A stretch of DNA of 64,000 bases. It comes from an uncultured bacterium. Lineage in GTDB: Bacteria > Nitrospirota > JACRHL01. The stretch spans positions 13,973-77,972 of the forward strand of contig CBDUXI010000006.1 of assembly GCA_965371175.1 (NCBI GenBank), given 5' to 3'. The notes beneath the pieces are model-generated. The model was not told the origin of the DNA and did no database searches. It worked only from the letters and a program-made list of their open reading frames with translations. The translations under genes and the position numbers were made by a program. Shown piece by piece: positions 3,236 to 32,933 of the stretch (the first letter of the stretch is position 1; every line of letters begins with the position of its first letter).

Positions 3236-3256
3236 CGCCCGCTTGTTCAGGTCGCC

Positions 3257-4219
3257 ATGATCTACGCCACCGGATTTTACAAAGATAAGCGCTACGCCTC
3301 GATCGACGAAGTGGTCGCCGCAGCCACCAAGTGGCTGGAGGATGGCAAAATCGGCATGGTGGTGGGGTACGGCCGTCAGAGCCCGTTTACCGATCTGACC
3401 ATGCCCACCTTTGTGAATCGGGCAGAAAAGCTGGCCGACGAACTGGTGTGGAACCGGCTGTGCGATTACAACCTGCTCAACTACGCCAATCTGGGGGCGG
3501 GAGAGGCCCGGCGTGGCAACGGTGGCGTGGCCATCATGCTCAAGCCGTGCGAACTGCACAACCTGGACATCCTCATGGAAGAGGGCGACATGTCGAACGT
3601 GAATCACGACAACGTGATTCCCATGGTCATGGCCTGCGCAGGCGTGTGCGAAACCGAGGGGCTGAACGCCTATACCGAAGGCGATGCGGTGCTGAAGGTG
3701 CAGACCAAGTGCCTGGACTGCCCGGAATATGTGAGCGCCCACGGCCTCGAAAAAGTGGAGGCCGAACGGGCCGAGCGCGAAGATTACCAGCGCTACACGC
3801 GGCAGATTGAGGACGATTCCGAAATCGACTGGGGCACCACCCTGGACAAGTGCCTGCACTGCTACGCCTGCCGCAACGTCTGCCCGTCGTGCTACTGCAC
3901 CGACGGCTGCCCGGCGGATGAGGCCGCCACCGCCCATGTGAGCAACGCCCTCAAGGTCATCAAGGGCATCGACGCCAGCCGCCAGATGATCTACAACCTG
4001 GTGCGCACCTGGCATATTCAGTCGCGCTGCTCCGAGTGTCAGGAGTGCGAGCGGGTGTGCCCGGTGCACATTCCCATCATGGCGCTCAAATCCAAGCTGG
4101 GCCGGGATTTCGACGGCGAAGGCAGCCCCGGTGACGTGATTGGATTTTTGACCAACTTCGCCGCAAAAAACTTGGTTTCCAAAAAGCCGGACGCGGAACC
4201 GGCGGAGAACAAGCCGTGA
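3257..4219 (+). CDS. Fe-S protein with two ferredoxin-type CxxCxxCxxxCP motifs; N-terminal region possibly FrhB/FdhB-like
   Basis: 'CLHCYACRNVCPSCYC' and 'CSECQECERVCPVHIP' are 4Fe-4S motifs. 'KPCELHNLD' resembles the G-x-PC signature of FrhB-family proteins (weak). The stop overlaps the next gene's GTG start (GTGA). Confidence 0.6.
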   Translation: MIYATGFYKDKRYASIDEVVAAATKWLEDGKIGMVVGYGRQSPFTDLTMPTFVNRAEKLADELVWNRLCDYNLLNYANLGAGEARRGNGGVAIMLKPCELHNLDILMEEGDMSNVNHDNVIPMVMACAGVCETEGLNAYTEGDAVLKVQTKCLDCPEYVSAHGLEKVEAERAEREDYQRYTRQIEDDSEIDWGTTLDKCLHCYACRNVCPSCYCTDGCPADEAATAHVSNALKVIKGIDASRQMIYNLVRTWHIQSRCSECQECERVCPVHIPIMALKSKLGRDFDGEGSPGDVIGFLTNFAAKNLVSKKPDAEPAENKP

Positions 4220-5304: not shown

Positions 5305-6215
5305 GTTCCCCGGTACTTAATTCGACTTCCTCGCCGACCCTCTCGTCAGCCCCCACCGGGGCCAACCTGTACCTGCCCAAACTGGTGCGGATCGACAAGA
5401 TCATCCACGAAACCCACGACGTACGCACCCTGCGGCTGGTGTTTGTGGACGAGGCCGACCGCAAGGCGTTTTCCTACAAGGTGGGGCAGTTTGGTGAATT
5501 CTCCGTGTTCGGGGTGGGGGAGGCCACGTTCAATATCTCATCGTCCCCCACATGGGACGGGTATTTCGAGTGCTGCTTCCGCACCGTGGGCGAGGTGACC
5601 CGCGCCCTGGCCCTGCACAAGGAAGGCGATATCATCGGCTTTAGAGGGCCGTACGGCAATTGGTACGACCTGGAAAAAATGCAGGGCAAAGACCTGATCT
5701 TTGCTGCGGGCGGCATCGGTTTTCCGCCCATCCGCTGCCTGGTCTGGAACGTGCTGGCCGAGCGCGAAAAATACGGCTCCATCACCGTGGTGCACGGGGC
5801 GCGTACCCACAACGATCTGGTCTATCAGAGCGAACTTGACGAGTGGTCAAAACGGCGCGATATGCACGTGGTGAAAACCGTCGACCCCGGCGGTGAGCCG
5901 GAAGACTGGGACGGCGAGGTGGGGTTTGTGCCGTCGGTCATCGAAGAGAAAGTCCCGTGGATTCTGGAGCGGGAGGGCAAGGGTCTCAAAAACGCCATGG
6001 CGTTTGCCTGCGGCCCGCCGGTGATGACCAAATTTGTCATCGCCGCCCTCACCGGCATGGGTTTCGGGCTGGATCAAATCGGCCTCACGCTCGAAAACAA
6101 GATGAAGTGCGCGGTGGGCAAGTGCGGACGGTGTAACATCGGCAGCACCTATGTGTGCCTGGACGGCCCGATTTTTACCGCCGATCAGGTGGCATTATTA
6201 CCGGATGATCAATAG
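5301..6215 (+). CDS. AsrB/HydG/PyrK-like FAD/NAD(P)H-binding oxidoreductase subunit with C-terminal 2Fe-2S
   Basis: Ferredoxin-NADP reductase-like fold with 'GGIGFPPIRCL', and a C-terminal 'CAVGKCGRCNIG' 2Fe-2S motif typical of AsrB/sulfhydrogenase gamma/PyrK. ATG at 5301 overlaps the upstream stop. Confidence 0.8.
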   Translation: MSSPVLNSTSSPTLSSAPTGANLYLPKLVRIDKIIHETHDVRTLRLVFVDEADRKAFSYKVGQFGEFSVFGVGEATFNISSSPTWDGYFECCFRTVGEVTRALALHKEGDIIGFRGPYGNWYDLEKMQGKDLIFAAGGIGFPPIRCLVWNVLAEREKYGSITVVHGARTHNDLVYQSELDEWSKRRDMHVVKTVDPGGEPEDWDGEVGFVPSVIEEKVPWILEREGKGLKNAMAFACGPPVMTKFVIAALTGMGFGLDQIGLTLENKMKCAVGKCGRCNIGSTYVCLDGPIFTADQVALLPDDQ

Positions 6216-12031: not shown

Positions 12032-13690
12032 CTAGTCGTCGCCTGACACCGGCCCGGCCAGCGGGTTGGGCATTAGATATATCTGCTGAGAAATATACGG
12101 AAGGTCCTCCATCAGGTCTGGATGGACGGACACAAAAGCAATCCGGCTGCCATCGGTGCTGATCTCCGGGTTCCAAGCGTGGCGGGTTAATTCAATCGTT
12201 TCGCCGGTCTCCCGGTCAAACAGGTGTATGCGCCTCTGACGCACGTTGTGGTTAATATGGTTCAGGGCGAACACGGTAAAGTGCCCATCCCCACTTATAG
12301 ATAACGATAATCCGTATCCTTGATAGTCGGGATACCGGTCGGTATCCACGGTCATGCGGGTGATTTTCCCGGTGGCGATCTCTTCCAGGTAGGCATCGAC
12401 CACGCCGTTGGTATCGGCGGGGTCCAGGGGCGCATTGGTAAAGTAAGCGACCCAGGCACCGTCGGTGCTGATCCGGGGAACGTTCACCCTGGCGGGGGTG
12501 CCTTCCGGCCCTTTGGCCAGAATGCGGGCGCTATCGGTTTCCATGTCGTGCAGGACAAGCACCGATCTGGAGAAGGACTCACTCCTGGCGGTAAAGAGGA
12601 GCCATCGACCGTCTGCGCTGGTCTGTGCTGCCGAGCTATAGCTATAGGAGTCCCCATCCGGAAGCGTTTGGGATGGGTCTATGACCTTGTGTGTTTGCAG
12701 GTCGCGCTGGCGGATAAACGGGTAGTCCCAATTCCCCTCGGGGGTCTGTACCTGTTCCAAAAAGGTTACGTACCGGCCATTCCCACTGAGGTCGGCATGT
12801 GTGGCACCCAGGGTGCTTGGCTGGCCGGGTTTGTCCTGGCTTGCCACCTCGGTTTTTCCGGAACCGCGGTCGTGAACCAGTATGTTGGGGATGTAGTAGG
12901 GGTTCCCGCTATCTGAAAACCGGGTAGCTCCGGCAACATATGCCACGCGATCACCATCGTCGGACAGTGAAGCCGATTCCCAGGGAATGTGGCCCGCAAA
13001 GCCGTCTGGAATTGGCATGCGTTCGGTTGTGCCACGCTCCAGATCGCGCACAATGACAAGGCTGTACTCGGTTCGGGACTCCGGCACTGAGGGAGGTGCC
13101 AGATTGAGGGCGTAAGAAATAAACGCCACCCGGTCGCCCGTTCCATCTATGGCAAGCCCCCACATCGGTCCGATGGCCGGCTCCAGTTCATCGCTCACGC
13201 TCACCCGCTCGATGTCCGCAGGAATGGGGGGTGTGGGGGTTGGCGGCGGCCCGATTGTAACAGTCACCGTGCCCGGTTCCGATGTGCCGTACCGATCCGT
13301 AAGCGTGTAGGTAAAGGTGTCGACCCCCTCGGCCCCCGGATGTGGGGTGTACTCAAAGTGGTTGTTATCGTAATAGTAGCTCCAACTCCCGGCCGTCCGT
13401 AGCGTGGCCGTGCCCAGCTTGCCGTTTTCGGCAATGGCATAGGAGGGGCGTGGGGTATCCGGGGTGTGCGGTATTTTTTCTTCCGGGGAGGGATCGCTCA
13501 GGCTACCTCCCAGGCCACCGGTTACGGCATAACCCGCCGCGGTATAGGCCTCCAGGTCTATCACCGTTGGCTTTACTGTACTGCCCCCGCCGTTGTTACT
13601 TCCCCCACACGCGGTAAGCGAAAACAGCAGCAACACCGAAAGAAAGTTGAAAACGGATTTACGCCCCGGCAGGTCACACAAAAATTTCAT
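12032..13690 (-). CDS. Lipoprotein with an Ig-like/cadherin-like domain and PD40/TolB-type beta-propeller repeats
   Basis: Lipobox 'LLLFSLTACGG' with a Gly/Ser linker. 'VDTFTYTLTDRYGTSEPGTVTVTIGPPPTPTPP' is Ig-like. Recurring 'ISxDG...VAF/YVS' motifs suggest PD40-like blades. Paralog of the next gene. Confidence 0.75.
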   Translation of the reverse strand: MKFLCDLPGRKSVFNFLSVLLLFSLTACGGSNNGGGSTVKPTVIDLEAYTAAGYAVTGGLGGSLSDPSPEEKIPHTPDTPRPSYAIAENGKLGTATLRTAGSWSYYYDNNHFEYTPHPGAEGVDTFTYTLTDRYGTSEPGTVTVTIGPPPTPTPPIPADIERVSVSDELEPAIGPMWGLAIDGTGDRVAFISYALNLAPPSVPESRTEYSLVIVRDLERGTTERMPIPDGFAGHIPWESASLSDDGDRVAYVAGATRFSDSGNPYYIPNILVHDRGSGKTEVASQDKPGQPSTLGATHADLSGNGRYVTFLEQVQTPEGNWDYPFIRQRDLQTHKVIDPSQTLPDGDSYSYSSAAQTSADGRWLLFTARSESFSRSVLVLHDMETDSARILAKGPEGTPARVNVPRISTDGAWVAYFTNAPLDPADTNGVVDAYLEEIATGKITRMTVDTDRYPDYQGYGLSLSISGDGHFTVFALNHINHNVRQRRIHLFDRETGETIELTRHAWNPEISTDGSRIAFVSVHPDLMEDLPYISQQIYLMPNPLAGPVSGDD

Positions 13691-13825
13691 TACACGTCCC
13701 CTGGTTTCCCCCATCAAGCCCAGTCCGGAACGGGCTGCCTTGACGGCTGATTTGATTAAACCATCATCAATTTTATCAGGATTCTCCCATCTGGCAAATG
13801 GTGGCCGGACGGGCGCGGCCTGATG

Positions 13826-15526
13826 CTAATCCACGTCGCCGTCCACCGGCTTGCCACCCTCTCCGGCCAGCGGGTTGGGCACCACATAGATCTGGCTCGG
13901 GTTATCCGGGCTGTCCGCCGCAAGTTCCGGGTTATCGGACAAAAAGGTGATCCAGTTACCGTCGGTGCTGATGACCGGATACTGGGCATTGCGCATCAGT
14001 TCGATGGCTTCGCCGGTTTCCCGGTCAAACAGGTGCACCCGGAACTGGCTTATGGTTTGGTTGATGTGCTTCATGGTGAATACGGAAAAACGTCCGTCAC
14101 CACTGATGGAGACCGATAGTCCGAGTGGTGGAAGCCTGGGAAACCGGTCGGTGTCTACGCGCATAAGGGTGATTTTCCCGGTGGCAATCTCTTCCAGGTA
14201 GGCATTGGTTGCACCGCTGATATTGGTGGGGTCCAGGCTGTTGGCTGAGAAATATGCGGCCCAGGCACCATCGGCACTGATGGTGGGATAGAAAGCCTGC
14301 GCCGGAACGCCCGTCGGCCCCACGGCTAGGGGGCGGTCGCTGCCGTCTGCCGTGTCGTGCAGGAAGACCACATCCCCTTCGTGACCTGCGGCGTGTGCCG
14401 AAAAGGTGATGAACCGCCCTTTCCCGCTGACCTGGGGCACCCACCCGGCGGGATAGTAGGTTGCTCCATCAAGAACGGGATGGGGCAGGAGCCTGGTCGT
14501 TCCTTTTTTCAGGTCGCGCAGGTAGATGCCCGTTCCATACGTTACGGGATCGTCCAGGAGATCGGTCGCAACACTAAAAAAAGCTACGTACTGGCCACTG
14601 GCGCTCAGGTCGGCAAAAAAGGAACTGCTGTTTCCCGGGTCGCCGGCTGTGTTGCGGCTTGCCACCTCGGTTTTTCCGGACCGGAGGTTGTGGACCAATA
14701 CGTTCCAGACGTAGGTTTGATAGTAATCGTTGTCTCCGAGCGGAATCCCGGAAGCAGAAAATGAAATACGGTGTCCATCGTCGGATAGTACGGGAGTACC
14801 CGCTTCGTACTTTGCGGCGTACTGCGTGTCTCTCACCTGCACCCGTTCGGTGGTTCCGCGATCCAGGTCGCGTACAAAAATCTGGCGGATAGCAGGTTCG
14901 GGCGTATCCGGCGTCAGGTTGGTGGCTTCGGAAATAAATGCCACGTGCCGCCCCGTGCCGTCCAGCGTAGGGCGCCAGACCCCGCCGTTTGCCGGTGCAA
15001 GGTCGTCGCTTACGCTCACCCGCTCGATGCCCGCAGGGATCGGAGGTGCGGGTGCGGTTTCCGGCCCGATGGTCACGGTGACAATGCCCGGCTCGGATGT
15101 GCCGAACGGATCCGTGAGCGTGTAGGCGAACGTATCCACCCCCGCAGTCCCCTCATGCGGGGTGTATCTAAAACGGGTGATCTCGCCAGTCCACTCAAAG
15201 TAGACCGTTGTGAGCTTAACCGTGCCCAGTTCGGGACCTTCGACGATGTTGTAGCTGTAGGGGGAGGAAATTGGACTTCGCATGAAGTCTTCCAGGTCGG
15301 GCGGAAAATTCAGTTCGTTGGTGTGGCCTTGCAGGATGCCGATTACCGAGTAATCCGAAGGGGTGTATGCCTCCATATCTTCCACGATGGGCGGGAATGC
15401 TTCGGAGCTGCCGCCCCCGCCGCTACTGCTGCCGTTCAGGCCACACGCGCTCAACGACACAAAAAACAGCAGCAGGATGGCGTTAAAAAAAGTTGTACGG
15501 ATCGAACGGTTACACAAAAAGGGCAT
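13826..15526 (-). CDS. Paralogous lipoprotein with Ig-like domain and PD40-type beta-propeller repeats
   Basis: Same architecture as the upstream gene ('VDTFAYTLTDPFGTSEPGIVTVTIGPETAPAPP') and a conserved C-terminal 'PNPLAG' tail. Lipobox 'FFVSLSACG'. Start placed at 'MPFLC' (the ORF extends to 15598). Confidence 0.75.
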   Translation of the reverse strand: MPFLCNRSIRTTFFNAILLLFFVSLSACGLNGSSSGGGGSSEAFPPIVEDMEAYTPSDYSVIGILQGHTNELNFPPDLEDFMRSPISSPYSYNIVEGPELGTVKLTTVYFEWTGEITRFRYTPHEGTAGVDTFAYTLTDPFGTSEPGIVTVTIGPETAPAPPIPAGIERVSVSDDLAPANGGVWRPTLDGTGRHVAFISEATNLTPDTPEPAIRQIFVRDLDRGTTERVQVRDTQYAAKYEAGTPVLSDDGHRISFSASGIPLGDNDYYQTYVWNVLVHNLRSGKTEVASRNTAGDPGNSSSFFADLSASGQYVAFFSVATDLLDDPVTYGTGIYLRDLKKGTTRLLPHPVLDGATYYPAGWVPQVSGKGRFITFSAHAAGHEGDVVFLHDTADGSDRPLAVGPTGVPAQAFYPTISADGAWAAYFSANSLDPTNISGATNAYLEEIATGKITLMRVDTDRFPRLPPLGLSVSISGDGRFSVFTMKHINQTISQFRVHLFDRETGEAIELMRNAQYPVISTDGNWITFLSDNPELAADSPDNPSQIYVVPNPLAGEGGKPVDGDVD

Positions 15527-15891
15527 ACACAAGTACTTGTTCTGCTCAGCTTCCGGCCACGTCCGGAAGAGATAGGGGGTGTTTTCCAACAAAAACAAGC
15601 CGATACAGGCTGTTTAGACGGGAAACCAACCCTAATTTTAGCAGATACCGGAAATCCGGCCATCCCTCATTCGAGTGAAATTGTGGCCCTTGCTTTGGCG
15701 GCAGGCTCCCCGAAAACAGGGGGTGTAGCGCTTCGGTGGCACCGTGCCGCAGCCAAAAACGGGACGGTTTTTAAAAAAACTTACCCCATGACGGTGGTGT
15801 GCCGACAGGAGCCGGTGAAGGCCGTATAAGACCACGCGGCCCGGTGCTTTATTTCGACCGCGTACCCCGCCTGGGGACAGATGAGGTAACC

Positions 15892-18846: not shown

Positions 18847-20139
18847 TCAGCGTTTGTCTATCGGCTGGTAGTCCCGGGCGGTGGGGCCGGTATATAGCTG
18901 GCGCGGGCGGCCGATGACCGAATCCGGCTCGTTGATCATCTCCATCCAGTGGGAAATCCACCCCACCGTGCGCCCCAGGGCGAACATGACGGTGAACATG
19001 TTGATGGGGATGCCGATGGCCTTGAGAATGATGCCGGAGTAAAAATCCACGTTGGGGTACAGCTTGCGGCTGATGAAATACTCCTCCTTGAGGGCTTTTT
19101 CTTCCAGACGCATGGCCAGCTCCAGTTGTGGATCGTCAATGCCCAGGGCGTCCAGCACCTTGTGGCAGGCTTCGCGGATGATGGTGGCCCGGGGGTCGTG
19201 GTTTTTGTATACCCGGTGGCCGAAGCCCATGAGCCGGAACGGATCGTCCGGGTCTTCGGCGCGGTCGATGACGCCATCGACGTTTTCGATCCCGTCGATC
19301 TGGTCGAGCATGGCCAGCACGGCTTCGTTTGCGCCGCCGTGGGCAGGCCCCCACAGGGTGCCGATACCTGCCGAGATGCAGGCAAACGGATTGGCGCCGG
19401 AAGAGCCCGCCAGACGCACGGTGCTGGTGGAGGCGTTCTGTTCGTGGTCGGCATGCAAAATAAAAATCTGGTCCAGGGCTTTCGCCACCACCGGGTTGAT
19501 CTCGTATTCCTCGGCGGGTACCCCGAACATCATACGCAGGAAATTTTCGGCGTATCCCAGGCTGTTGTCCGGGTACAAAAACGGCTGACCTTGAGAAAAC
19601 TTGTAGCTCCACGCGGCGATGGTGGGCATCTTGGCGATCAGCCGGTGGGCCGAAATTTCCCGGTGTTCGGGGTTATGGATGTCCAGCGAGTCGTGATAGA
19701 AGGCCGAAAGCGCGCCCACCACGCCCACCATGGTGGCCATGGGGTGAGCATCCCGGCGGAAGCCGTTATAAAAATTTTTGAGCCCCTCGTGGATCATGGT
19801 GTGCTGGGTGATGTTCGTACGGAACTCCGTGAACTGGTCCTCGGTGGGCAACTCGCCGTACAGCAGCAGGTAGCACACTTCCAGATGGGAGCTGTGCGCG
19901 GCCAGTTGCTCAATCGGGTAGCCCCGATACATGAGGATGCCCTTTTCGCCGTCGATGAAGGTGATCTTGCTTTCGCAACTGGCGGTGGAAAGGAACCCGG
20001 GGTCGTAGGTAAAGTGCCCGGTCTGGCTGTACAGCTTGCGGATATCGATGACCCGTGGACCCACGGAGGCATCGTAGATCGGCAATTCCACGGGCTTGCC
20101 GCCCTTGTCGATGGACAGGCTGGCGTGTTCGTCGCTCAT
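18847..20139 (-). CDS. gltA: Citrate synthase (type II, Gram-negative hexameric type)
   Basis: '[50 protein letters not shown]' is canonical GltA. Start taken at 'MSDEHASL' (AAGGAAGGG RBS). The ORF extends to 20232. Confidence 0.93.
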
Positions 20140-20405
20140 GGAAACCCTTCCTTGGAGATCAGTGTTTTCACCGAAGGTCGCCGTCATGGCACCCCTTTGC
20201 CCGGCATATCCTTCTTCGGCCTTATCGACCATCCGGGAGTGGACGATGAGGGTTTTTCCTTAAGAAGTGATGGTTTATCTTGCCCCATTTTCATAGCGAG
20301 CGCCATTCGCTGAACCCGCACGGCGGGTTTTCCTGCAATTGCCCCTTTCCCCGGCACGGGTAGAGACGGTATCCTGACTCTTTTGCCCACACTCTCTTTA
20401 AGGGG

Positions 20406-23630: not shown

Positions 23631-23847
23631 ACCGGTCACCAAGCCTTTACAGAACAGGTGATTCCGGGCTACCTTGTTTCATACAAGGGGATGCAACACA
23701 TTAAAGGGTCCGGAGCGGGTATTGGGCAATGCCTTGTTCCGGCTCAGTGCCGGTGGTAAGCGGGGAACTGCCGGCAGGAGGGCGCGGTCGTATGCAGGTT
23801 TCCTGTGTCTGCCGCCTTCCGTCTGGTCTTTGTACCGGGAGGGTGGC

Positions 23848-26355
23848 ATGATCGATAAAGGCTTTCTTGATCGGGCCAAGCTGCCGGTACGGATTATCAT
23901 CCCGCTGGTGCTGCTGGTGTTTTCCGGGCTGCTCGCCTTATACCTGTTTCAGTACAACACAAAACACGACTATCAGCATCTGGAAGAGAGCTCCAGAAAA
24001 GAGCTGACTGCCGACATGACGCGTTTGCAGTCGGCGCTCGAATACCTGTGGCAGAACGGTCACATGGAACGCATGCATAATGTGGTGGCCGAACAGTACG
24101 CAGACCCGGTGGTGCTGTCCGCCTACCTGATCGACAACTGGGGCAGCATCCGGGCCGGGCTGGACGAGACCCGCCCGGAGAGCGAATGGGCCACGGTGCT
24201 GCTGGCAAAAAGCCCGGTTGAACGCAACCGGCGGACGCTGATTATCGATGAGATACTGACCACCGGTCAGGGGGCGGTATACCTGAGTGACGACGGCACC
24301 CGGGTGGTCGGGCTGTATGCAATTCGGCTTGCGCCTGTTCCGGTCGATGATGCGCTCCAGACGGGCATTTTGTTTATGGAGCGGGACCTCACGGCTGCCA
24401 AGCAGGCGGCCCGGAGCGAGGTCATCCGGCAGGTGGCGCAGCCGAGTGTGTCGATTGCGGTGCTGGCGGCTCTGATGTGGCTGTTCTTTCACCTGGCCTT
24501 GAACCGCCGGGTGGCGCAACTGGTGACCGCCACCGAAAGACTGGCTGCGGGGGACCTGTCCACCCGTTCCGGGGTAAGCGGTATAGACGAGGTGGGGCGG
24601 GTGGCCCAGGCGTTTGACCGCATGGCCCGCCAGTTGGAGGAAGGCCGCAGTCGCCTGACCGAAAGCGAAGCGCGGGTGGTGCTGCTTTTAGACTCGGCGG
24701 CGGAGGCCATTTTCGGCATCGATCTGGACGGCAAGTGTACGTTCAGCAACCGGTCCTGCCTGTCGCTTCTGGGATATACGGATGTAGAGGAGATGCGGGG
24801 CCAGTGCATTCACGACCTGATTCACCACAGCTATCCGGACGGAACGCCGTACCCGGTGGCGGAATGTCACATCCAGAACGCCCTGATAAGCGGGCAGGAG
24901 GTGCACGTGGATGGCGAGGTGCTATGGCGCGCCGACGGCACCTGTTTCCCGTCCGAATACTGGTCGCACCCGATCAGAAAAGAGGGGGAAATTGTCGGTT
25001 CGGTGGTGACCTTCGTCGATATCACCAAGCGCAAGCGGGCGGAAGATGACCTCACCCGTGCCAATGAGGCGCTGGAAACCCGGGTGCATGAGCGTACCGC
25101 AGCGCTGGTGTCCGCCAACCGGCAGTTGATGACCGAGGCCGGCGAGCGGGAGCGGGTGGAGCTGGCCTTGACCCAGGCCAAGGAGGAGGCCGAAACCGCC
25201 AATCAGGCCAAGAGCGAGTTTCTGTCCCGCATGAGCCACGAACTGCGTACGCCCATGAATGCCATTTTGGGGTTTGCCCAGATTCTGGAGTCCGACCCCG
25301 GCGAGCCGTTGTCGTCTTCCCAGCACGAGAGTGTGCGGGAAATTTTAAGCGCGGGCTACCACCTGCTGGAGTTGATCAATGAGGTGTTGGACCTGTCACG
25401 CATCGACGCAGGTAGGCTGGACGTGCATATGGAGCCGGTGCCGGTGGGTGCCGCCGTGGACAGCGCCATCGCCCTGATCGAGCCGATGGCCGACCGGTTT
25501 AGCGTGACCCTCGACAACCGCATCGACGTGCAGGGAACCGCGTCCATTATGGCCGATATCACCCGCCTGCGTCAGGTGTTGCTGAATCTGCTGTCCAACG
25601 CGGTCAAGTACAACACCGAAAACGGGACCGTTACCGTGACGCTGGAAGAAGCGGCTGCGGGCGCCTGGCGAATCAGCGTGACCGATACCGGACCCGGCAT
25701 CCCGGAGGCGCAACAGGCCAGGCTGTTCCAGCCGTTTACCCGGTTGTCGGACGACTATACCGCCGTGGGCGGCACCGGTATCGGGTTGACCATCACCCGG
25801 CGGCTGGTGGAGTTGATGGACGGCCACATCGGTTTTGTTTCCGCACCGGGAGACGGCACCTGTTTTTTTGTGGAGTTTGCCGCTGCCGACGCCGTCCCGC
25901 AGGCGACGCAGGCGGTGCCGGAAGTCGATATGCCGCCCCATATTCCGGAGACGTCCGAAACGGGGCACTCCGGCCTGTTTGCACGGCGCAAGGTGCTGTA
26001 TATCGAAGACAACAGCGCCAACGTGGAACTGGTGCGGCGCATTCTGGCCAGAAGAGGCGATATCGAAATGCTTTCCGCCGCCACCGCGGGCGACGGTATC
26101 GACGTGGCGATAGCGCATCGTCCGGACGTGGTGCTGGTGGATATTCACCTGCCGGACATGAGCGGCTTTCAGGTGCTCGAAAAATTGCAGGGTCGTGCAG
26201 AAACCCGGCATATGCCGGTGCTGGCCTTCAGTGGTGAAAGCCTGCCTCAGGATGTGGAGAAGGGACTGGAAGCCGGGTTCTTCCGCTACCTCACCAAACC
26301 CGCCGACATCCGCACCCTGCTTGCCGCCATCGACGAGGCCATGCCAACAAATTAA
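23848..26355 (+). CDS. Hybrid sensor histidine kinase/response regulator (TM-HAMP-PAS-HisKA-HATPase-REC)
   Basis: N-terminal TM helix and a HAMP-like region. H-box 'RMSHELRTPMNAI', G-box 'DTGPGI' and 'GGTGIGL'. C-terminal receiver 'VLVDIHLPDMSGF'. The ORF begins at 23674. Confidence 0.85.
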   Translation: MIDKGFLDRAKLPVRIIIPLVLLVFSGLLALYLFQYNTKHDYQHLEESSRKELTADMTRLQSALEYLWQNGHMERMHNVVAEQYADPVVLSAYLIDNWGSIRAGLDETRPESEWATVLLAKSPVERNRRTLIIDEILTTGQGAVYLSDDGTRVVGLYAIRLAPVPVDDALQTGILFMERDLTAAKQAARSEVIRQVAQPSVSIAVLAALMWLFFHLALNRRVAQLVTATERLAAGDLSTRSGVSGIDEVGRVAQAFDRMARQLEEGRSRLTESEARVVLLLDSAAEAIFGIDLDGKCTFSNRSCLSLLGYTDVEEMRGQCIHDLIHHSYPDGTPYPVAECHIQNALISGQEVHVDGEVLWRADGTCFPSEYWSHPIRKEGEIVGSVVTFVDITKRKRAEDDLTRANEALETRVHERTAALVSANRQLMTEAGERERVELALTQAKEEAETANQAKSEFLSRMSHELRTPMNAILGFAQILESDPGEPLSSSQHESVREILSAGYHLLELINEVLDLSRIDAGRLDVHMEPVPVGAAVDSAIALIEPMADRFSVTLDNRIDVQGTASIMADITRLRQVLLNLLSNAVKYNTENGTVTVTLEEAAAGAWRISVTDTGPGIPEAQQARLFQPFTRLSDDYTAVGGTGIGLTITRRLVELMDGHIGFVSAPGDGTCFFVEFAAADAVPQATQAVPEVDMPPHIPETSETGHSGLFARRKVLYIEDNSANVELVRRILARRGDIEMLSAATAGDGIDVAIAHRPDVVLVDIHLPDMSGFQVLEKLQGRAETRHMPVLAFSGESLPQDVEKGLEAGFFRYLTKPADIRTLLAAIDEAMPTN

Positions 26356-26366
26356 ATCGGGTTTCC

Positions 26367-27605
26367 TTACCCGCCCAGCACCAGGCGTGCCCGCTCCCAC
26401 GGAGACAGGGATTTTCCCCCCAGACCACCGATCTCTTCCGTCACCCGCAGGCGCAGTTTGGGGTTGCGGGACAGCCCTTTGAAAGCCATGTCGCGCAGGG
26501 TGGTCAGCGCCGGGTTGCTCGCGTTCCAGAACAGCACCAGTTCGTCGCCCAGCCGTTGCATGGCCATGGCCGGTGGCCGCCGTTCGGTTTCATACCGGGC
26601 CAGCACCGCCGGGGGGACGCGGCCTTTGTCCAGATGTGCCGATGCGGCGGTGGCCAGACAGAGTGCATCTTCCAGCGCCAGATTCTGTCCCTGGGCCGTG
26701 TGCGGGTTCACCCCGTGGGCGGCATCTCCCAGCAGTACGGCGCCGGGCACATACCAGCGGGATGCCATGCGCCGGACGCACGGGAAGAAGGTCAGGTCGT
26801 CCCAGTTTTTCAGTGCGCGGGCGGCGGCCAAAGCGGGCGGATGAATCTGCCCGATGCGCTCGGCCAGTTTTTTGACTCCGGCTTTTTTGGCGGCGGCCAG
26901 ATCGTCCCCCGGCAGCATGTAGAAAAAATAGAGTTGCCGGTCCGATATGGGGAACAGCCCCAGAATTTCCTTTTTGCCCATGTAATAGAACCCGTCCCGG
27001 TCGAAACCGTCCGGGCGCGGCAACAGCCCGGTGAGATACCCTTCGCCGTACGGCAGATTGCTTGCCCCCACACCCATCTCGCGCTGCACCCGTGAAGCCC
27101 GTCCGTCGGCCCCGGCCACCAGCTTCGCACGTACCGTGTGACTGATGGCCCCCGTGCGGACGTGCACTCCGGCCACATTGGCCCCCTCCCGCAGCAGCCC
27201 GGTGACGGCGGCCCCCGTATGCACGCTCACATTTGGCAGGGTGCCAATTTTTTCCAGTAGCGCCTCGCGTACATAACGTGGCTGCAACACCAGGGTAGTG
27301 GGGTGGGGGTGGCTCAACTCCCGGTAGTCAAAGCTGACCAGCTCTTTTCGGCCGATGCGGCAAAAGTGGTAGAGGTGGGTTTCCGAGTGGGGCATCAAGC
27401 GCACCAGATCCAGCACCCCCAGTTGATCCAGCACGGCCAGGCCGTTGGGCTGGATAATCTCGCCGCGCACCGGCGCTTTGGGGTCCGTGTGCTTTTCCAG
27501 CACGCATATGCGCTGGCCACTCCGGCCCAGGGCCACCGCCAGGGCAAGTCCCGCCGTGCCCGCGCCGACCACGGCCACATCGACAATTTCGGGAACGGCA
27601 GTCAC
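26367..27605 (-). CDS. FAD-dependent monooxygenase, UbiH/UbiF/Coq6 family-like
   Basis: 'VDVAVVGAGTAGLALAV' GxGxxG FAD fold and a 'GDAAH' motif. Last gene of the ubiA-ubiD-FGE operon. Confidence 0.8.
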   Translation of the reverse strand: MTAVPEIVDVAVVGAGTAGLALAVALGRSGQRICVLEKHTDPKAPVRGEIIQPNGLAVLDQLGVLDLVRLMPHSETHLYHFCRIGRKELVSFDYRELSHPHPTTLVLQPRYVREALLEKIGTLPNVSVHTGAAVTGLLREGANVAGVHVRTGAISHTVRAKLVAGADGRASRVQREMGVGASNLPYGEGYLTGLLPRPDGFDRDGFYYMGKKEILGLFPISDRQLYFFYMLPGDDLAAAKKAGVKKLAERIGQIHPPALAAARALKNWDDLTFFPCVRRMASRWYVPGAVLLGDAAHGVNPHTAQGQNLALEDALCLATAASAHLDKGRVPPAVLARYETERRPPAMAMQRLGDELVLFWNASNPALTTLRDMAFKGLSRNPKLRLRVTEEIGGLGGKSLSPWERARLVLGG

Positions 27606-27621
27606 GAAAAGAACCCCGCCC

Positions 27622-28428
27622 TTACGGGGTTTTGGCGCAGCGGAAGCCCACGTCGTTCAAGCGTCCGTCCGGGTTCAGGTAGAGGCGGAACGAGGCGCGG
27701 GAGTTGTTGGCGACGATCTCCATGAACTCCTCCCGGTTCGGGTAGTGGCCGATGCTGGCCCACGAGTTGCCCCGCAGCACCCGGAAGCGCTCGCCAAATT
27801 TTCTATCTGTGGCCTCGCTGCCCGGATAGGCCTGATACCAGTCGCCGCTCCACTCCCACACGTTGCCGATCATATCCTGCACGCCGTACTGGCTGTTGCC
27901 CTTGGGGAAGCTGCCCACCGGCGCGGTGTTGGCACGGGCCACATTGGTGACTTCCTGATCGAACACATCGCCCCACGGGTAAACACGCCCGGCATTGCCC
28001 CGTGCGGCCTTTTCCCACTGAATTTCCGTGGGCAGGGACTTGCCGCCGTTCCAGACGCAGTAGTCGGCAGCGTCGTGCCAGGTGACGTGGGTCACCGGGT
28101 GCTGCGCCAGCCCTTCCGGCGGGGTTTTATTTCTTTTCCAGTGGTCCGGCGGGCGCCGCTCGGTGGCCTGCACAAACAGGGCGTAGGCGGCGTTGGTCAC
28201 CTCGGTTTGATCAATGAAATAGGCGTCCGTGTGCACGGTGCGCTCCGGCCGCTCGTTTTCATACCACGGGACCACCAGCCCCAGGTCTTCGGCGCGACCG
28301 CCCGCGTCGGTCTGATTGGTGCCCATGACGAATGTGCCTGCGGGGATTTTGATCATTCCCTCCGGCGGCGCTTTGCAGGCGGCGCATAACAGCACGGAGA
28401 TCATCCCCAAAGTAGCGGCCAGTTTCAC
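27622..28428 (-). CDS. FGE-sulfatase (SUMF1/formylglycine-generating-enzyme family) domain lipoprotein, paralog a
   Basis: GTG start gives 'MKLAATLGMISVLLCAAC' (lipobox, AAGAGGA RBS). Motifs: 'VTNAAYALF', 'HPVTHVTWHDAADYCVWNGGKSLPTEIQWEKAARG', 'YPWGD', 'GNVWEWSGDWY', 'RVLRGNSW', 'GFRCA'. Confidence 0.8.
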   Translation of the reverse strand: MKLAATLGMISVLLCAACKAPPEGMIKIPAGTFVMGTNQTDAGGRAEDLGLVVPWYENERPERTVHTDAYFIDQTEVTNAAYALFVQATERRPPDHWKRNKTPPEGLAQHPVTHVTWHDAADYCVWNGGKSLPTEIQWEKAARGNAGRVYPWGDVFDQEVTNVARANTAPVGSFPKGNSQYGVQDMIGNVWEWSGDWYQAYPGSEATDRKFGERFRVLRGNSWASIGHYPNREEFMEIVANNSRASFRLYLNPDGRLNDVGFRCAKTP

Positions 28429-29438
28429 GATGCGTCCTCTTTTGTTGGTGCGGGCGGTGTGGCCGCGCAGCGGAAGCCGAAAGAATTGTTGCGGATTTTC
28501 GGGGTAAAGCGGCTGCGGTTGTAGCTGGGGGCAGATAAGCCGCAGCCGTACGACAGACAGTCGTACCAGGAGCCGCCCCGGAGTACCCGGTTCTTGTGCC
28601 CGTAGTGGGAGTTGGAAAACTGGTTGTCCGGGTACGGCAGGTACCAGCTGGCGGTCCATTCCCACACGTTGCCGGCCATGTCGTACAGGCCGTGGGGGCT
28701 TTTGCCGTCCTCGAACGAGCCCACCGGCAGGGTGCCGCCACCTTCCCGCTTCGATGCCCACCGTTGCGGGCTGTTGGCCTTGTCCAGGGAAAACTTGTTG
28801 CCCCATGGAAACACGAACCCTTCCGGTCCTCTCGCGGCCTTTTCCCATTCCAGTTCGGTGGGCAGGCGCTTGCCTTCCCACTGGCAGAAATCGACCGCGT
28901 CGAACCAGCTTACATAGACCACCGGATGCGCCGATTTGCCCTCCGGTATCTGCCCGCCCTTCCAGTGCCGTGGCTGCCGGTGGCCGGTGGCGTCGGTAAA
29001 TTGCCGGTAGCGGGCGTTGGTGACTTCGTACAGATCGATATAAAAGCCCTCCACGAACACCTGATGCTCCGGGGTTTCATCCAGGTTGCCCTTGCCCTCG
29101 GTAATCTCGCGCCCTTCGTTGCCGATCAGGGTTTCCCCTGCCGGGATCCGGGCCATGCGGGCGGTGTCCAGTGCTTTTGCGGGCGCGGCTTGTGCGTGAT
29201 CTTCGGCGTCGGCCACGGTAGAGAGTCCGGCTGCGTGGTCCCCGGCATGGCATTCGGCGCAGGTACCCTGAGCCATGTTCACCTGCGGGCCGGTGCCGTC
29301 CGGTCCGTGGCACCTGCCGCACGCGGAGGAGGAGACTTCGGTGAACGGTTGGGGTGCCACGGGTGCATCGTTTGCGGCCATGACCGCTACGGCTCCCAGA
29401 ATACACAGCGCCGGGATCAGCGCGAGCGCCCGGAGCAT
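28425..29438 (-). CDS. FGE-sulfatase domain protein fused to an N-terminal dihaem c-type cytochrome module, paralog b
   Basis: Signal peptide 'MLRALALIPALCILGAVAVMA'. Two CxxCH haem-binding motifs ('CGRCH', 'CAECH'), then a full FGE domain ('VTNARYRQF', 'HPVVYVSWFDAVDFCQWEGKRLPTELEWEKAARG', 'RVLRGGSW'). Its stop overlaps paralog a's GTG. Confidence 0.8.
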   Translation of the reverse strand: MLRALALIPALCILGAVAVMAANDAPVAPQPFTEVSSSACGRCHGPDGTGPQVNMAQGTCAECHAGDHAAGLSTVADAEDHAQAAPAKALDTARMARIPAGETLIGNEGREITEGKGNLDETPEHQVFVEGFYIDLYEVTNARYRQFTDATGHRQPRHWKGGQIPEGKSAHPVVYVSWFDAVDFCQWEGKRLPTELEWEKAARGPEGFVFPWGNKFSLDKANSPQRWASKREGGGTLPVGSFEDGKSPHGLYDMAGNVWEWTASWYLPYPDNQFSNSHYGHKNRVLRGGSWYDCLSYGCGLSAPSYNRSRFTPKIRNNSFGFRCAATPPAPTKEDAS

Positions 29439-29442
29439 CCGC

Positions 29443-30312
29443 CTACTTTCCGTCCTTTGCACAGCGCACCCCGGAGTCGCGGAAGCGGCCCTTGGGGTCG
29501 AAGGCAAAGCGGTAGTTGGCGCGGGACATCTGGCTGATGACCTCGTGCCGGGCGTCCGGGTCAAAGTGGCCCGGCTCGCCGTAGGAGTTGCCCCGGATCA
29601 CCTTGAACTGCAAGGCGTAGTTGTCGCTTTCGTGGGTGCTTTCCGGGTACGACCGGTACCAGCTTTTGGTCCATTCCCAGGCGTTGCCGATCATGTCTTC
29701 CACGCCGTACACGCTTTTCCCCTGGGGAAAACTGCCCACCGGCATCAACCGGCCCAGGCCCCCCCGGGCCACGTTGGCGTAGTCTTCGCTAAAGGTGTCT
29801 CCCCACGGGTACAGGCGGCCGTCGGTGCCGCGGGCGGCCTTTTCCCACTCGGCTTCCGTGGGCAGGCGCTTGCCAAAGTGCTGGCACGACAGATACGCCT
29901 CGTACCAGTTCAGGCCGGTGACCGGGTAGTCGTTCGTGCCTTCCGCCGGGACTTCCCCTTTCCAGCCGCGGGGCACCCCCAGCGGCAGCTCGGTGGCGTT
30001 TAAAAATTGCAGGTACTGGGCGTTGGTCATCTCGTATTTGTCGATGTAGAAGGTGGACAACTCCAGGGTGCGCTTTGGCGTGGCGTCGGAGTACCAGGTG
30101 TACGGCAGGCCGTGTCGGGCGGCCTCGTCGTCGTCCATCCGGTCGGTGCCCATGATGAACGGACCGGCGGGGATCCGCACCATGTCGTGCAGCGGATCGT
30201 CTGCGGGTTTGGAGGTGCTGCCCGAGTGGGCGCAGCCGCCAGTCAGGGTGAGTGCACACACGGCGAGCGTAGCGATTGCACCCGTATAAAATGGTTTCAG
30301 TCGGCCAGTCAT
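29443..30312 (-). CDS. FGE-sulfatase domain lipoprotein, paralog c
   Basis: 'MTGRLKPFYTGAIATLAVCALTLTGGCAHS' lipobox. Motifs 'MTNAQYLQF', 'YPVTGLNWYEAYLSCQHFGKRLPTEAEWEKAARG' and 'GNAWEWTKSWY'. The ATG abuts the ubiD stop (TAAATG). Confidence 0.8.
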   Translation of the reverse strand: MTGRLKPFYTGAIATLAVCALTLTGGCAHSGSTSKPADDPLHDMVRIPAGPFIMGTDRMDDDEAARHGLPYTWYSDATPKRTLELSTFYIDKYEMTNAQYLQFLNATELPLGVPRGWKGEVPAEGTNDYPVTGLNWYEAYLSCQHFGKRLPTEAEWEKAARGTDGRLYPWGDTFSEDYANVARGGLGRLMPVGSFPQGKSVYGVEDMIGNAWEWTKSWYRSYPESTHESDNYALQFKVIRGNSYGEPGHFDPDARHEVISQMSRANYRFAFDPKGRFRDSGVRCAKDGK

Positions 30313-31770
30313 TTAGAGTCCGTATTCCTTCCAGCGTTGGGTGACCCGTTCCACCACCTCCGGGTCCATTTCAATCGGGCGGCCCCACTCCCGGTGGGTT
30401 TCGGGGGTCATTTTGTCGGTGGCGTCCATGCCCATTTTACTGCCCAGCCCGGATTCGGGGGAGGCAAAATCCAGATAGTCGATGGGGGTGTTTTCCACCA
30501 GCACCGTGTCGCGGGCCGGGTCCATGCGGGTAGAGATGGCCCAGATCACGTCGTTCCAGTTCCTCACGTCGATATCCTCGTCCACCACCACGATAAACTT
30601 GGTGTACATGAACTGGCGCAAAAAACTCCACAGGCCGAACATGATGCGCTTGGCGTGGCCGGGGTACTGCTTTTTGATGGAGATGATCGCCATGCGGTAG
30701 CTGCACGCCTCCATCGGCAGGTGCAGATCGACCACTTCGGGAAACTGCTGTTTGAGCAGCGGCACGAACACGTCGTTGAGCGCCAGCCCCAGCATGGCCG
30801 GTTCGTCCGGCGGACGGCCGGTGTAGGTGCTCATGTAGATGGGGTTCTTGCGGTGGGTGATGGCAGTGGCGGTAAACACCGGAAATTTTTCCACCTGGTT
30901 GTAATAACCGGTGTGGTCGCCGTACGGCCCTTCATCGGCATAGTCGGAAAGCGATACGTGCCCTTCAATCACAATCTCCGCCGTGGCGGGCACTTGCAGC
31001 GGGATGGTTTTGCAGTCGGTCACCTCGATCTTTTTACCCCGCAAGAGCCCGGCAAAATGGTATTCCGACAGGGAGTCGGGCACCGGGGTGACGGCGGCGA
31101 TGGTGGTGGCCGGTTCGCAGCCGATGGCGATGGCCACGGGGATCGGGTCTTTGTGCTTTTCGGCCCAGTTTTTGTGATCCAGCGCCCCGCCCCGATGGGC
31201 CAGCCAGCGCATGATGGCGCGTTTTTCATCCAGCACCTGCATGCGGTAGATGCCCAGGTTCACCCGGCCCCCGTCGGCCCCCCGGGTAATCACCAGCGGC
31301 CAGGTAATCAGCGGCGCGGGTTCTCCCGGCCAGCAGCCCATGACCGGCAGTTTGGTCAAATCGACCTTGTCTGCCTTGATCACCACTTGCTGACATGCCG
31401 CCCGCGAGACGGACTTGGGCGGCATGTTGAGCATGTGCTTGATCAGCGGCAGCTTGCCCATGGCATCTTTCATGCCTTTGGGCGGCTCCGGCTGCTTGAG
31501 CGAGGCGAGTAGTTCGCCCACATCGCGCAGGCCGCCCGGTTTGGTTTCCAGGCCCCGCTCCACCCGCTCCACGGTGCCAAACAGGTTGGTCAGTACCGGC
31601 CAGTCGTACCCTTTGGGATTTTCGAACAGCAGGGCGGGGCCGCCTTCGGCCAGCACCCGGCGGCTGATTTCGGTCATCTCCAGATGCGGGTCCACGGGGG
31701 CGGTAATGCGTTTTAACTGCCCGTCGGCCTCCAGGGCGGAGATGAATTCGCGCAGATCGGAAAACGGCAT
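30313..31770 (-). CDS. ubiD: UbiD-family decarboxylase (4-hydroxy-3-polyprenylbenzoate decarboxylase)
   Basis: '[40 protein letters not shown]' and full-length UbiD homology. Start placed at MPFSDL (the ORF extends to 32013). Overlaps the ubiA stop (TGATG). Confidence 0.9.
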
Positions 31771-32681
31771 CAGACGGCCCTTATCAACGGGGTGATCAAC
31801 ATGGCCAGCAAAATCACGGCCCCGGCGGGCACATGGGCACGAAATAAAGCAAACGCCTGTGCGCGGCTGAGCCCTGCCTTTACCTGTATGCCCTGACGGA
31901 TAAAGTAAATGCCCGCCGCCGCCACCACGGTTAAATAAAGCGGTCCCATGCCTTCGCGCGCGCCCGCCATGGCCAGCAGCAGGCAGGTGACCAGCAGGCA
32001 GCCGATGATCCACGCCCAGGCGGCGGACCCGAACAGGATGGCGGACGACTTCACCCCCACTTTTTTATCGTCTTCCATATCCTGAATGGCGTAGATGGTG
32101 TCGTAGGCCACGGCCCAGAAAATGGTGGCGGCAAACAGCAGGGCGGGGGTGAGGGCCAGTTCATTTTTGACCGCTGCCCATGCCATGAACGCGCCCCAGC
32201 CGAAGGCCATACCCAGAAACGCCTGGGGAATGGACACAAACCGCTTGGTAAACGGATACAGCACCGCCAGCCCCAGCCCGCAGGCGGCCAGCACAATCGT
32301 GAGCCGGTTTAAGTGCGCGATCAGCAGCACGGAAATTCCCACCAGCACGGCAAAGGCAAACAGCGCCACGGGCACGGACAGGCGGCCGGACGCCAGCGGG
32401 CGCAGACGGGTGCGGGAAACCAGCGGGTCAATCTTGCGGTCGGCCACGTCGTTGATGATGCAGCCTGCACTGCGCATCAAAAAAGCACCCACGGTAAAAA
32501 TAATCAATAAACGTGGATCGGGCCGCCCGCCGCCCGCAAGGGTCAGCGCCCACAGAGACGGGATCAACAGCAAAAAAGTGCCCCACGGGTTTTTGACCCG
32601 CATCAGGTCAAGCAGGGCGGATACGGTTTTCCGAATGCCGTGGGCCGAGCCTGGGTCCGAAGTGTCGAGTGAGCTATTCAA
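31770..32681 (-). CDS. ubiA: 4-hydroxybenzoate polyprenyltransferase
   Basis: UbiA-family '[27 protein letters not shown]' (NDxxDRxxD) motif. Eight or more TM helices. Confidence 0.9.
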
Positions 32682-32933
32682 GATCTATTACTATACAGTG
32701 TGCAGGCCGTGCGATGGTACGGTCCGGGCGGCGCTACAGTCAACTTTCAGCCCGCGCTGGAACGGCTGTGGGCACGGCTGTCCGGCCCGTTTTCCGGCGC
32801 TTTGGGCGGCACCGGAAAACGAATCGGTTTTCGACGGTTACGAACGCCAGGTTTTGTGGTAAAATTCTGTCTCCTTAAGCGTTGTATTGTCCGGTCATGA
32901 GGGGTGACCGAAAGGCTGTAGTGGGGCCGGGCG

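Follow-up and report, generated by a model that had tools for sequence, protein, structure and literature searches.

Aerobic members of the phylum Nitrospirota make methyl-plastoquinone (mPQ) from 4-hydroxybenzoate, and neither ubiquinone nor menaquinone (PMC11874023). The enzymes of this pathway are MpqC, MpqA, MpqD/X, MpqQ and MpqE (Elling et al. 2025, PMC11874023), and complementation in E. coli demonstrated the activities of MpqA and MpqD/X, which are homologs of UbiA and UbiD/X (PMC11874023). The hydroxylation of C1 is the step without an assigned enzyme: it was described as 'unresolved', no clear UbiH homolog was reported and the genes were found to be 'not colocalized' outside Leptospirillum (PMC11874023), and a paper of October 2025 still gave no candidate for this hydroxylase (PMC12998194). 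Here we analyse a stretch of 64,000 nucleotides (hereafter the window; contig CBDUXI010000006.1 of assembly GCA_965371175.1) from an uncultured bacterium of this phylum. Unlike the mPQ genes described outside Leptospirillum, the UbiA and UbiD genes of the window share an operon with three genes encoding proteins of the formylglycine-generating enzyme (FGE) fold, designated FGE-a, FGE-b and FGE-c, and with a gene for a flavin monooxygenase (FMO). We report that FGE-b, a predicted fusion between an exported dihaem c-type cytochrome and an FGE domain, is kept beside quinone genes in related Nitrospirota.

FGE uses O2 and two reducing equivalents, and canonical FGEs have no known physiological electron donor. 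The FGE fold is also found in PvdO (5HHA; NF051459), a periplasmic dihydropyoverdine dehydrogenase which lacks the Cys pair and takes part in the oxidation of a hydroxylated aromatic ring, and, as a C-terminal FGE-like domain, in the sulfoxide/selenoxide synthases EgtB, OvoA and SenA, which are biosynthetic small-molecule enzymes. The latter are cytoplasmic and need an N-terminal DinB-type domain with iron-binding histidines. A periplasmic copper domain with a built-in haem c electron entry is known from the cytochrome-c-fused copper nitrite reductases. The quinone ring hydroxylases, both the flavin enzymes (UbiH, UbiI, UbiF, UbiL, UbiM, PlqH) and UbiU-UbiV-UbiT, which works without O2, differ from the FGE module described here in fold, cofactor and cellular location.

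Linkage of the dihaem-FGE fusion to quinone genes

Gene context was obtained from exact-protein look-ups and from a scan of metagenome contigs that was seeded by the active-site segment only. We counted 34 non-redundant loci (L numbers below) with the Nitrospirota-type signature GGSWYDC[LM]xYGC and at least 1.5 kb of upstream sequence; near-duplicates had been removed, and the loci are phylogenetically non-independent. UbiA lies directly upstream of FGE-b, on the same strand, in 30 of the 34 loci and UbiD lies upstream of it in 17, so that UbiA and/or UbiD accompanies the fusion in 32/34. The control consisted of 80 generic FGE-domain loci from many phyla, among the matches listed from a scan of a genome collection with the full FGE-b alignment, matches that went back to the common pattern KRLPxExEWE; this set contained no close FGE-b ortholog and says nothing on absence from particular genomes. 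None of the 80 loci has UbiA as a neighbour. Such a difference (32/34 versus 0/80) excludes an accidental juxtaposition. The first-pass annotation had proposed a functional tie between the FGE proteins and the quinone genes and had left it to be seen whether relatives always keep the fusion next to ubiA/ubiD; 32 of the 34 loci do, in several gene orders, and the proposal is not refuted. It had also presented the six genes as one set. Here only the partnership with UbiA or UbiD is conserved and the whole set is not, FMO being found in the window clade only.

Indeed, the gene order has been reshuffled in at least five ways with the link to UbiA/UbiD kept. The order UbiA-UbiD-a-b-c-FMO is that of the window clade (L004, L005, L087, L093, L095); since the identical six-gene order recurs in these relatives at 54-85% protein identity, the arrangement in the window is not due to chance. 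In Candidatus Manganitrophus (L001) and in L006, L098, L103, L104 and L118 the order is [UbiC-like]-FGE-UbiA-UbiD-b-FGE, and in L167-L169 and others it is [UbiC-like]-UbiA-b-FGE, with a third paralog and a small cytochrome c gene on the opposite strand. The order UbiA-FGE-b-FGE is also seen among Nitrospirota loci. In one Nitrospirota locus, L170:3740-11032 (GCA_964648095.1, CAZYNY010000052.1), we observed UbiC-like-UbiA-UbiD-b-FGE-UbiU-UbiV-UbiT. Finally, UbiD and FGE-b stand alone and are translationally coupled in L149:7674-10186 and L173:7538-10008, neither UbiA nor FGE paralogs being nearby. Where UbiA or UbiD adjoins FGE-b, stop and start codons often overlap, and a paralog of the FGE-c type lies directly 3' of FGE-b in most orthologous loci. 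The presence of a UbiC-like gene in several related clusters is a further likeness to the mPQ pathway.

In L170, UbiV (277 bits, cut-off 275) and UbiT (69 bits, cut-off 47) pass the NCBIfam thresholds and UbiU (407 bits) stays just under its own of 440. This locus suggests that an mPQ-type quinone is hydroxylated without O2, within a phylum in which mPQ has been linked to an aerobic way of life. Small monohaem cytochrome c genes divergently adjoin several clusters, and in L168:8422-21068 and L169:7890-21011 the UbiA-FGE cluster adjoins a Nitrospira-type respiratory block made of several cytochromes c, an EB_dh-domain protein, a cytochrome bd-like oxidase subunit and Rieske/cytochrome b.

Two simple roles of the module were considered and rejected. 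It does not replace UbiC, as UbiC-like genes coexist with it in L006, L169 and L170, nor does it replace UbiD, as it occurs with and without UbiD and is sometimes coupled to UbiD alone.

Two side observations were made at these loci. In L149, the next genes, on the opposite strand, are hydrogenase maturation-like. In L001 (Ca. Manganitrophus sp., CP114553.1), a fourth, divergent FGE gene (L001:15059-16458) immediately precedes a molybdopterin oxidoreductase (Oxidored_molyb) gene, 4 kb downstream of the mpq/FGE cluster.

FGE-b and its two partner proteins

All three proteins match PF03781 nearly end to end (E=9e-46 for FGE-a, 1e-57 for FGE-b and 1e-52 for FGE-c). In an alignment of 29 FGE-b orthologs, 50-70% identical, the only invariant residues of the N-terminal part are two haem motifs ahead of the FGE domain, CGRCH (C40xxCH44) and CAECH (C60xxCH64). 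Multihaem cytochrome families of Pfam (c3, c7, CBB3) match the N-terminal 75 residues only below their gathering scores. As FGE-b also has a signal peptide, which lacks a lipobox, it is predicted to be an exported dihaem c-type cytochrome fusion. FGE-a and FGE-c are predicted to be exported lipoproteins: their leaders end with LTLTGGC (box LTGGC) and VLLCAAC (box LLCAAC), respectively, slightly non-canonical lipoboxes as judged by the motif [LVI][ASTVI][GAS]C, and most of their orthologs carry canonical ones (LTAC, LSGC, VSGC, AAGC, LAGC, LTGC).

The FGE domain of FGE-b contains four cysteines that are invariant in the 29 orthologs, C185, C294, C299 and C324. C185 and C324 are the counterparts of the structural disulfide C218-C365 in human FGE; C294 and C299 lie in the active-site loop with the same Cys-x4-Cys spacing as human C336/C341 and are the probable equivalents of this copper-ligand pair. 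The residues that flank the pair are different (DCLSYGC in FGE-b, MCHRSYC in human FGE). The GGS serine and the GNVWEW tryptophan of FGE are kept. At the position of the Cys loop, FGE-a has RGNSYGEPGH and FGE-c has RGNSWASIGH, with no Cys pair, and nearly all their orthologs carry RG.S...GH there; the only cysteines of FGE-a outside its leader, 143 and 284, are at the positions of the conserved structural disulfide. FGE-a and FGE-c are thus likely non-catalytic partner subunits, and FGE-b is the presumed catalytic one. On these points the initial reading of the genes was right, in that three FGE-domain paralogs with export signals are encoded (lipoprotein leaders on FGE-a and FGE-c, a signal peptide on FGE-b), the middle one carrying two haem motifs; the alignment which it had suggested shows that FGE-b alone keeps Cys-x4-Cys.

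The best matches of FGE-b in the PDB, by sequence and by fold, are copper FGEs (top Foldseek hits with a probability of 1.00), and its predicted fold also matches ToxD, CalU17 and pFGE. The AlphaFold2 model, built with 29 sequences, has a mean predicted local distance difference test score (pLDDT) of 65.8 and supports the fold only, not the geometry of the Cys pair. In comparison to the copper FGE/SUMF1 enzymes (human 1Y1E, Streptomyces coelicolor 2Q17/6MUJ, T. curvata 6S07), FGE-b shares the fold, a probably equivalent Cys-x4-Cys pair, GGS, GNVWEW and one disulfide. Unlike them, it is predicted to be exported and fused to a dihaem cytochrome c, its Cys loop has one extra residue in addition to other neighbours of the pair, and it travels with two apparently non-catalytic paralogs and quinone-synthesis genes, and no sulfatase or CxPxR target is encoded nearby. 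Indeed, there is no [CS]xPxR motif in the six operon proteins and no sulfatase signature in the 64-kb window, and Pfam called no sulfatase in the annotated related loci.

Among 84 generic FGE open reading frames (ORFs) from many phyla, the Cys pair is present in two and CxxCH in three, and both ORFs with the Cys pair are among these three. Haem domain and Cys pair therefore largely co-occur, as would be the case with haems that pass electrons to a redox site formed by the cysteines. In a rough neighbour-joining tree, all haem-fused proteins form one clade and the non-catalytic partners another. The design logic is that of the cytochrome-c-fused copper nitrite reductases, with unrelated folds and reactions and with a copper that is putative in FGE-b. 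PvdO resembles FGE-a and FGE-c in being periplasmic and without the Cys pair, but its model gives weak matches only (E=1e-11 to 1e-13; 41-50 bits, where the cut-off is 500), and, unlike FGE-b, PvdO has no haem domain and belongs to a siderophore context. The first-pass annotation had also considered an iron-dependent C-S bond chemistry of the EgtB/OvoA type. We rejected it: FGE-sulfatase is the sole Pfam domain found, and the EgtB model TIGR03440 matches only at its positions 271-413, in the C-terminal part, with 89-124 bits against a cut-off of 360.

In the generic-locus sample, which took in the Nitrospira genomes named next, Cys pairs or haem motifs were found only in L010, L011 and one other ORF. 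Tandem arrays of FGE-domain genes were seen in L058:1677-13753, from a metagenome-assembled genome (MAG) of Nitrospira sp., and in L020, L041, L072 and L074, with up to six paralogs (six in L058) that are about 40% identical to FGE-b. These arrays are a large expansion of non-catalytic FGE-fold proteins in Nitrospira.

UbiA, UbiD, FMO and the host

The closest homologs of FGE-b and FMO belong to MAGs that carry the labels Leptospirillia, Nitrospirota or Nitrospirae, and more distant FGE-b orthologs from Nitrospiria and Candidatus Manganitrophus. The host is an uncultured Leptospirillia-like member of Nitrospirota.

UbiA (PF01040, E=1e-61) scores 296.6 bits with TIGR01474, above the equivalog cut-off of 275.45, and is 44-71% identical to the UbiA proteins of the orthologous Nitrospirota clusters, including that of Ca. 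Manganitrophus. UbiD has the three domains UbiD_N, UbiD and UbiD_C and scores 561 bits with TIGR00148 (cut-off 245); with the E. coli-type equivalog NF008175 it reaches 770 bits, just below the cut-off of 788. It is 61-62% identical to the UbiD proteins of Ca. Manganitrophus-type clusters. For the Ca. Manganitrophus-type cluster itself, the identities are 45% for UbiA and 62% for UbiD. As in the mPQ pathway (PMC11874023), we have here a member of the same phylum with UbiA- and UbiD-type enzymes, which in that pathway act on 4-hydroxybenzoate. Given this homology and the phylum of the host, the operon is best read as an mpq operon in which UbiA would be MpqA, best taken as the enzyme of the first committed step of mPQ synthesis, and UbiD would be MpqD. 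The first-pass annotation had spoken of a ubi-like operon; the operon is not one for ubiquinone, the aerobic members of Nitrospirota making mPQ via MpqA/MpqD. No mpqE, mpqB, mpqX or mpqQ was seen among the approximately 30 window proteins that were scanned, in which no search was aimed at them.

FMO is a class A monooxygenase (PF01494, FAD_binding_3, E=2e-41), of the same superfamily as the flavin hydroxylases of quinone rings. It had been called UbiH-like; the class holds, but membership of the UbiH/UbiF/COQ6 family does not, since FMO scores 138.9 bits with TIGR01988 (UbiH/UbiF/VisC/COQ6), below the cut-off of 224.65. In NCBIfam its best matches, all of them well short of the cut-off, are to generic 'FAD-dependent oxidoreductase' models. 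We found 21 orthologs of FMO at 54-60% identity, which make up a very small clade restricted to Nitrospirota, and those with visible context (L004, L005, L087, L093 and L095, and the fragments L088, L091 and L158) all show the gene order of the window. We consider it a clade-specific candidate ring hydroxylase. A second FMO group, 37-40% identical, was rejected as mpq-linked, no mpq genes being nearby in the one locus examined (L171).

Proposed function and alternatives

Most directly supported by the sequences are a predicted export of the FGE proteins to the periplasm, deduced from signal peptides and c-type haem motifs, the presence of one potentially catalytic and two apparently non-catalytic subunits, and a tight linkage with the putative MpqA/MpqD. 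In our best reading, the operon would encode the ring-building half of mPQ biosynthesis. On the cytoplasmic side, MpqA would prenylate 4-hydroxybenzoate and MpqD would decarboxylate the product to yield a polyprenylphenol. The three FGE-fold proteins would constitute a membrane-anchored periplasmic module, in which the Cys pair of FGE-b would hold Cu(I) and activate O2, the dihaem domain would supply two electrons from the periplasmic cytochrome c pool, and FGE-a and FGE-c would serve as membrane anchors of the module or in presenting the substrate. The module would meet the lipid-soluble quinone head group, its substrate, on the outer side of the inner membrane, and would most likely use O2 to oxygenate the prenylphenol at the para position (C1 hydroxylation). 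That Cu/O2 converts trimethylphenol to trimethyl-p-benzoquinone is established chemistry, and uncharged prenylphenols and quinols readily cross bilayers. The direct coupling of UbiD to FGE-b in two lineages fits a C1 oxygenation of the MpqD product. In the window clade, FMO may then offer a second, NAD(P)H-driven way to the same hydroxylation. In our opinion it is quite possible, if somewhat short of probable, that the module is an enzyme that performs redox chemistry on the head group of mPQ; that the dihaem-FGE fusion and its partners are the O2-dependent C1 hydroxylase of mPQ synthesis ('MpqH') is a narrower and more doubtful proposal.

Several observations weigh against such a role. Conventional hydroxylases are encoded in the same operons, FMO in the window clade and UbiU/V/T in L170, and, as mPQ needs one hydroxylation only, the FGE module would be redundant there. 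To our knowledge, all quinone-ring enzymes described so far are cytoplasmic, and a periplasmic step would be without precedent. HMMER places the Cys pair of FGE-b one residue off human C336/C341 (S-W-Y-D-C versus S-Y-M-C), which makes their equivalence probable rather than certain, and in the model the active-site loop (residues 295-317) has a pLDDT below 50. No protein labelled Nitrospira or Leptospirillum is among the best 120 homologs of FGE-b, so that some mPQ producers probably lack the module. In addition, the fusion exists away from quinone genes. One of the two exceptions to the linkage, L096:8099-10150 (and L097), from an organism with 44% GC, has no UbiA/UbiD nearby and contains two tandem dihaem-FGE genes, one with DCLSYGC and one with DCSFYRC. 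Distant dihaem-FGE proteins of a gammaproteobacterium, a deltaproteobacterium and two other Nitrospirota are not beside ubi genes either; that of an uncultured Gammaproteobacteria MAG (L007:9061-12132), with DCSFYRC, is adjacent to a non-catalytic FGE paralog and has a divergent small monohaem cytochrome c gene and thiamine and haem biosynthesis-like genes alongside. Solitary dihaem-FGE orthologs with a near-identical loop (GGSWFDCLSYGC) and the haem motifs CxxxCH and CxxCH are widespread in marine Nitrospinota (L108, L112, L114, L119, L143, L163, L172 and about 30 further metagenome loci). None of 18 Nitrospinota loci has UbiA, UbiD or an FGE paralog within 8-10 kb; the gene adjoins a lipoate-protein ligase gene, and these neighbourhoods give no functional hint. 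The quinone of Nitrospina was not known as of 2013 (PMC3578206), and a 2025 survey found no mPQ genes outside Nitrospirota.

These orthologs would be easier to understand if the module had a general periplasmic redox role. FMO, UbiU/V/T (as in L170) or another conventional enzyme would then be the hydroxylase, and the module would be a cytochrome-c-linked accessory that works in the periplasm on the quinone or quinol once it is made; it might shuttle electrons between mPQ and the cytochrome c pool, or protect the pool by consuming O2, and it would be expressed with the quinone genes because it uses their product. We hold this, the main rival, to be unlikely but worth serious attention. FMO or UbiUVT is indeed found in the same operons, some clusters adjoin genes for cytochrome c, Rieske/cytochrome b and a bd-like oxidase, and PvdO, a periplasmic protein of the FGE fold, can oxidise a dihydroxy-aromatic ring, although the matches to its model are weak here. 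However, the module is sandwiched among the biosynthetic genes (C-A-D-b-FGE-U-V-T, A-D-a-b-c-FMO) rather than lying at an edge of the operon, in two lineages its translation is coupled to that of UbiD alone, and most clusters (the Manganitrophus-like ones and those of the A-b-FGE type) have no other hydroxylase candidate nearby. Moreover, we know of no FGE-fold protein that is an electron-transfer oxidoreductase, which also counts against an accessory of this kind.

The same solitary Nitrospinota orthologs would suit a housekeeping function in protein maturation, and the closest solved relatives of FGE-b are copper FGEs, whose Cys pair, GGS serine and GNVWEW tryptophan it keeps. FGE-b could accordingly be a true formylglycine-generating enzyme adapted to the periplasm, with a dihaem domain in place of the thiol reductant and an exported target encoded elsewhere, the linkage to UbiA/UbiD reflecting a shared regulation and not a shared chemistry. 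We regard this as rather improbable: no CxPxR-containing target or sulfatase was found in the proteins and loci mentioned above, the flanks of the Cys pair are non-canonical, shared regulation leaves an adjacency maintained through at least five rearrangements unexplained, and two non-catalytic paralogs that travel with FGE-b are not accounted for. Without any catalysis, the three proteins could be a structural or lipid-handling complex of lipoproteins similar to GldJ, GldK or PorK, or be placed there by accident. Accident is ruled out by the linkage figures given above. As to a structural complex, FGE-a and FGE-c are predicted lipoproteins that lack the catalytic residues, NCBIfam models of GldK and GldJ are weakly matched and Nitrospira has many non-catalytic FGE paralogs; but the GldK and GldJ scores are far below the cut-offs, and the invariant haem motifs and Cys pair of FGE-b argue for redox catalysis, so that we find such explanations very improbable. 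The preferred reading of the module is that of a redox enzyme acting on the mPQ head group.

Operon layout and surroundings

The six genes are arranged head to tail on the minus strand (32681..26367), with junctions of -4 to +16 nt that were read directly from the sequence (Table 1). UbiA and UbiD overlap by 1 nt (TGATG), UbiD and FGE-a are contiguous (TAAATG), FGE-a and FGE-b are separated by 4 nt, FGE-b and FGE-c overlap by 4 nt (GTGA) and a gap of 16 nt precedes FMO. Gene calls and junctions thus agree with the tight single-strand operon that had been proposed at first sight.

Table 1. Features of the operon and its surroundings (positions in the window)
Feature	Position	Strand	Description
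UbiA	32681..31770	minus	303 aa, TTG start
UbiD	31770..30313	minus	485 aa; three UbiD domains
FGE-a	30312..29443	minus	289 aa; PF03781
FGE-b	29438..28425	minus	337 aa; signal peptide, dihaem region and PF03781
FGE-c	28428..27622	minus	268 aa, GTG start; PF03781
FMO (class A flavin monooxygenase)	27605..26367	minus	412 aa, GTG start; PF01494
Promoter-like site TTGACT-18-TACCAT	32714..32743	minus	consensus scan; 33 nt upstream of the UbiA start
8-bp GC-rich hairpin, then CTTTTC	27631..27612	minus	terminator-like, by scan; spans the FGE-c stop, 6 nt before the FMO start
Hybrid sensor kinase	23674-26355	plus	HAMP-PAS-HisKA-HATPase-receiver; between FMO and SNF2 helicase
Citrate synthase	18847-20232
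Succinyl-CoA synthetase alpha-type gene, then three Fe-S/NAD-binding oxidoreductase genes	2363-6215	plus	oxidoreductases: Fer4 dicluster, Fer4_22, NAD_binding_1 with DHODB Fe-S
Two tandem paralogous exported proteins and an FG-GAP repeat protein	12032-15598 and 54577-58500	minus	about 560-590 aa, each with Big_9 (Ig-like); 1307 aa

Promoter, hairpin and terminator calls come from simple consensus scans and are hints only. The promoter-like site is located in the divergent intergenic region common to UbiA and purQ, and the scan did not exceed chance (2 sites versus 1.6 expected). A weak terminator-like site was also found 3' of FMO. The hairpin at the FGE-c/FMO junction is possibly a partial terminator, or a signal for stabilisation or processing of the transcript. 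It looks like a local feature, as the gap between these genes is only 4-7 nt in the relatives L004 and L005 and cannot hold it there, and it may lower read-through into FMO. FMO is likely to be co-transcribed with the upstream genes, with the hairpin and the short T-run in the gap as a caveat. Rfam and tRNA scans of the 64-kb window found nothing.

The flanks of the operon match those of its two closest annotated relatives, with purQ-purL-purF divergent upstream and genes for an SNF2 helicase, a citrate synthase and a major facilitator superfamily (MFS) transporter downstream. They differ in one point only, the hybrid sensor kinase gene that follows FMO in the window. It converges on the 3' end of the operon, with 11 nt between the stop codons; L004 and L005 carry an acylphosphatase gene and a JAB-domain gene in its place. 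The succinyl-CoA synthetase/oxidoreductase set and the citrate synthase may be relevant to the carbon-fixation cycle of the host.

Significance

The UbiA/UbiD part of the operon belongs to known biology, the mPQ pathway described in 2025. FGE or sulfatase-modifying-factor genes are not mentioned in the main texts of the two studies on this pathway (PMC11874023 and PMC12998194), and searches of the literature gave nothing relevant on FGE or sulfatase-modifying factors in combination with UbiA, UbiD or Nitrospira, or with cytochrome c. Three elements are thus undescribed in the searchable literature: the dihaem-FGE fusion and its paralogs conserved in mpq operons, the clade-specific FMO and the variant that contains UbiUVT.

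mPQ has been described as a third high-potential quinone and has served as an argument that aerobic metabolism arose early. For the gap at C1, the present analysis provides three clonable candidates, namely the clade-restricted FMO, UbiU/V/T in one lineage and the conserved haem-linked FGE module, so that this step can now be tested in the E. coli complementation system that served for the other Mpq enzymes. If UbiU/V/T were the C1 hydroxylase, mPQ synthesis independent of O2 would be implied. A periplasmic, cytochrome-fused enzyme of the FGE type in a quinone operon would widen the range of roles known for the FGE fold, and the fusion would suggest a physiological electron donor for FGE-type copper chemistry; the abundant solitary orthologs of marine Nitrospinota nitrite oxidisers add an ecological angle. 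If the role as a hydroxylase is confirmed, the finding may prove categorically new: the module would be the first periplasmic quinone-ring hydroxylase, with a mononuclear copper/cysteine site of the FGE type and with electrons drawn from the cytochrome c pool and not from NAD(P)H, which would be economical for lithotrophs whose NAD(P)H comes from costly reverse electron transport.

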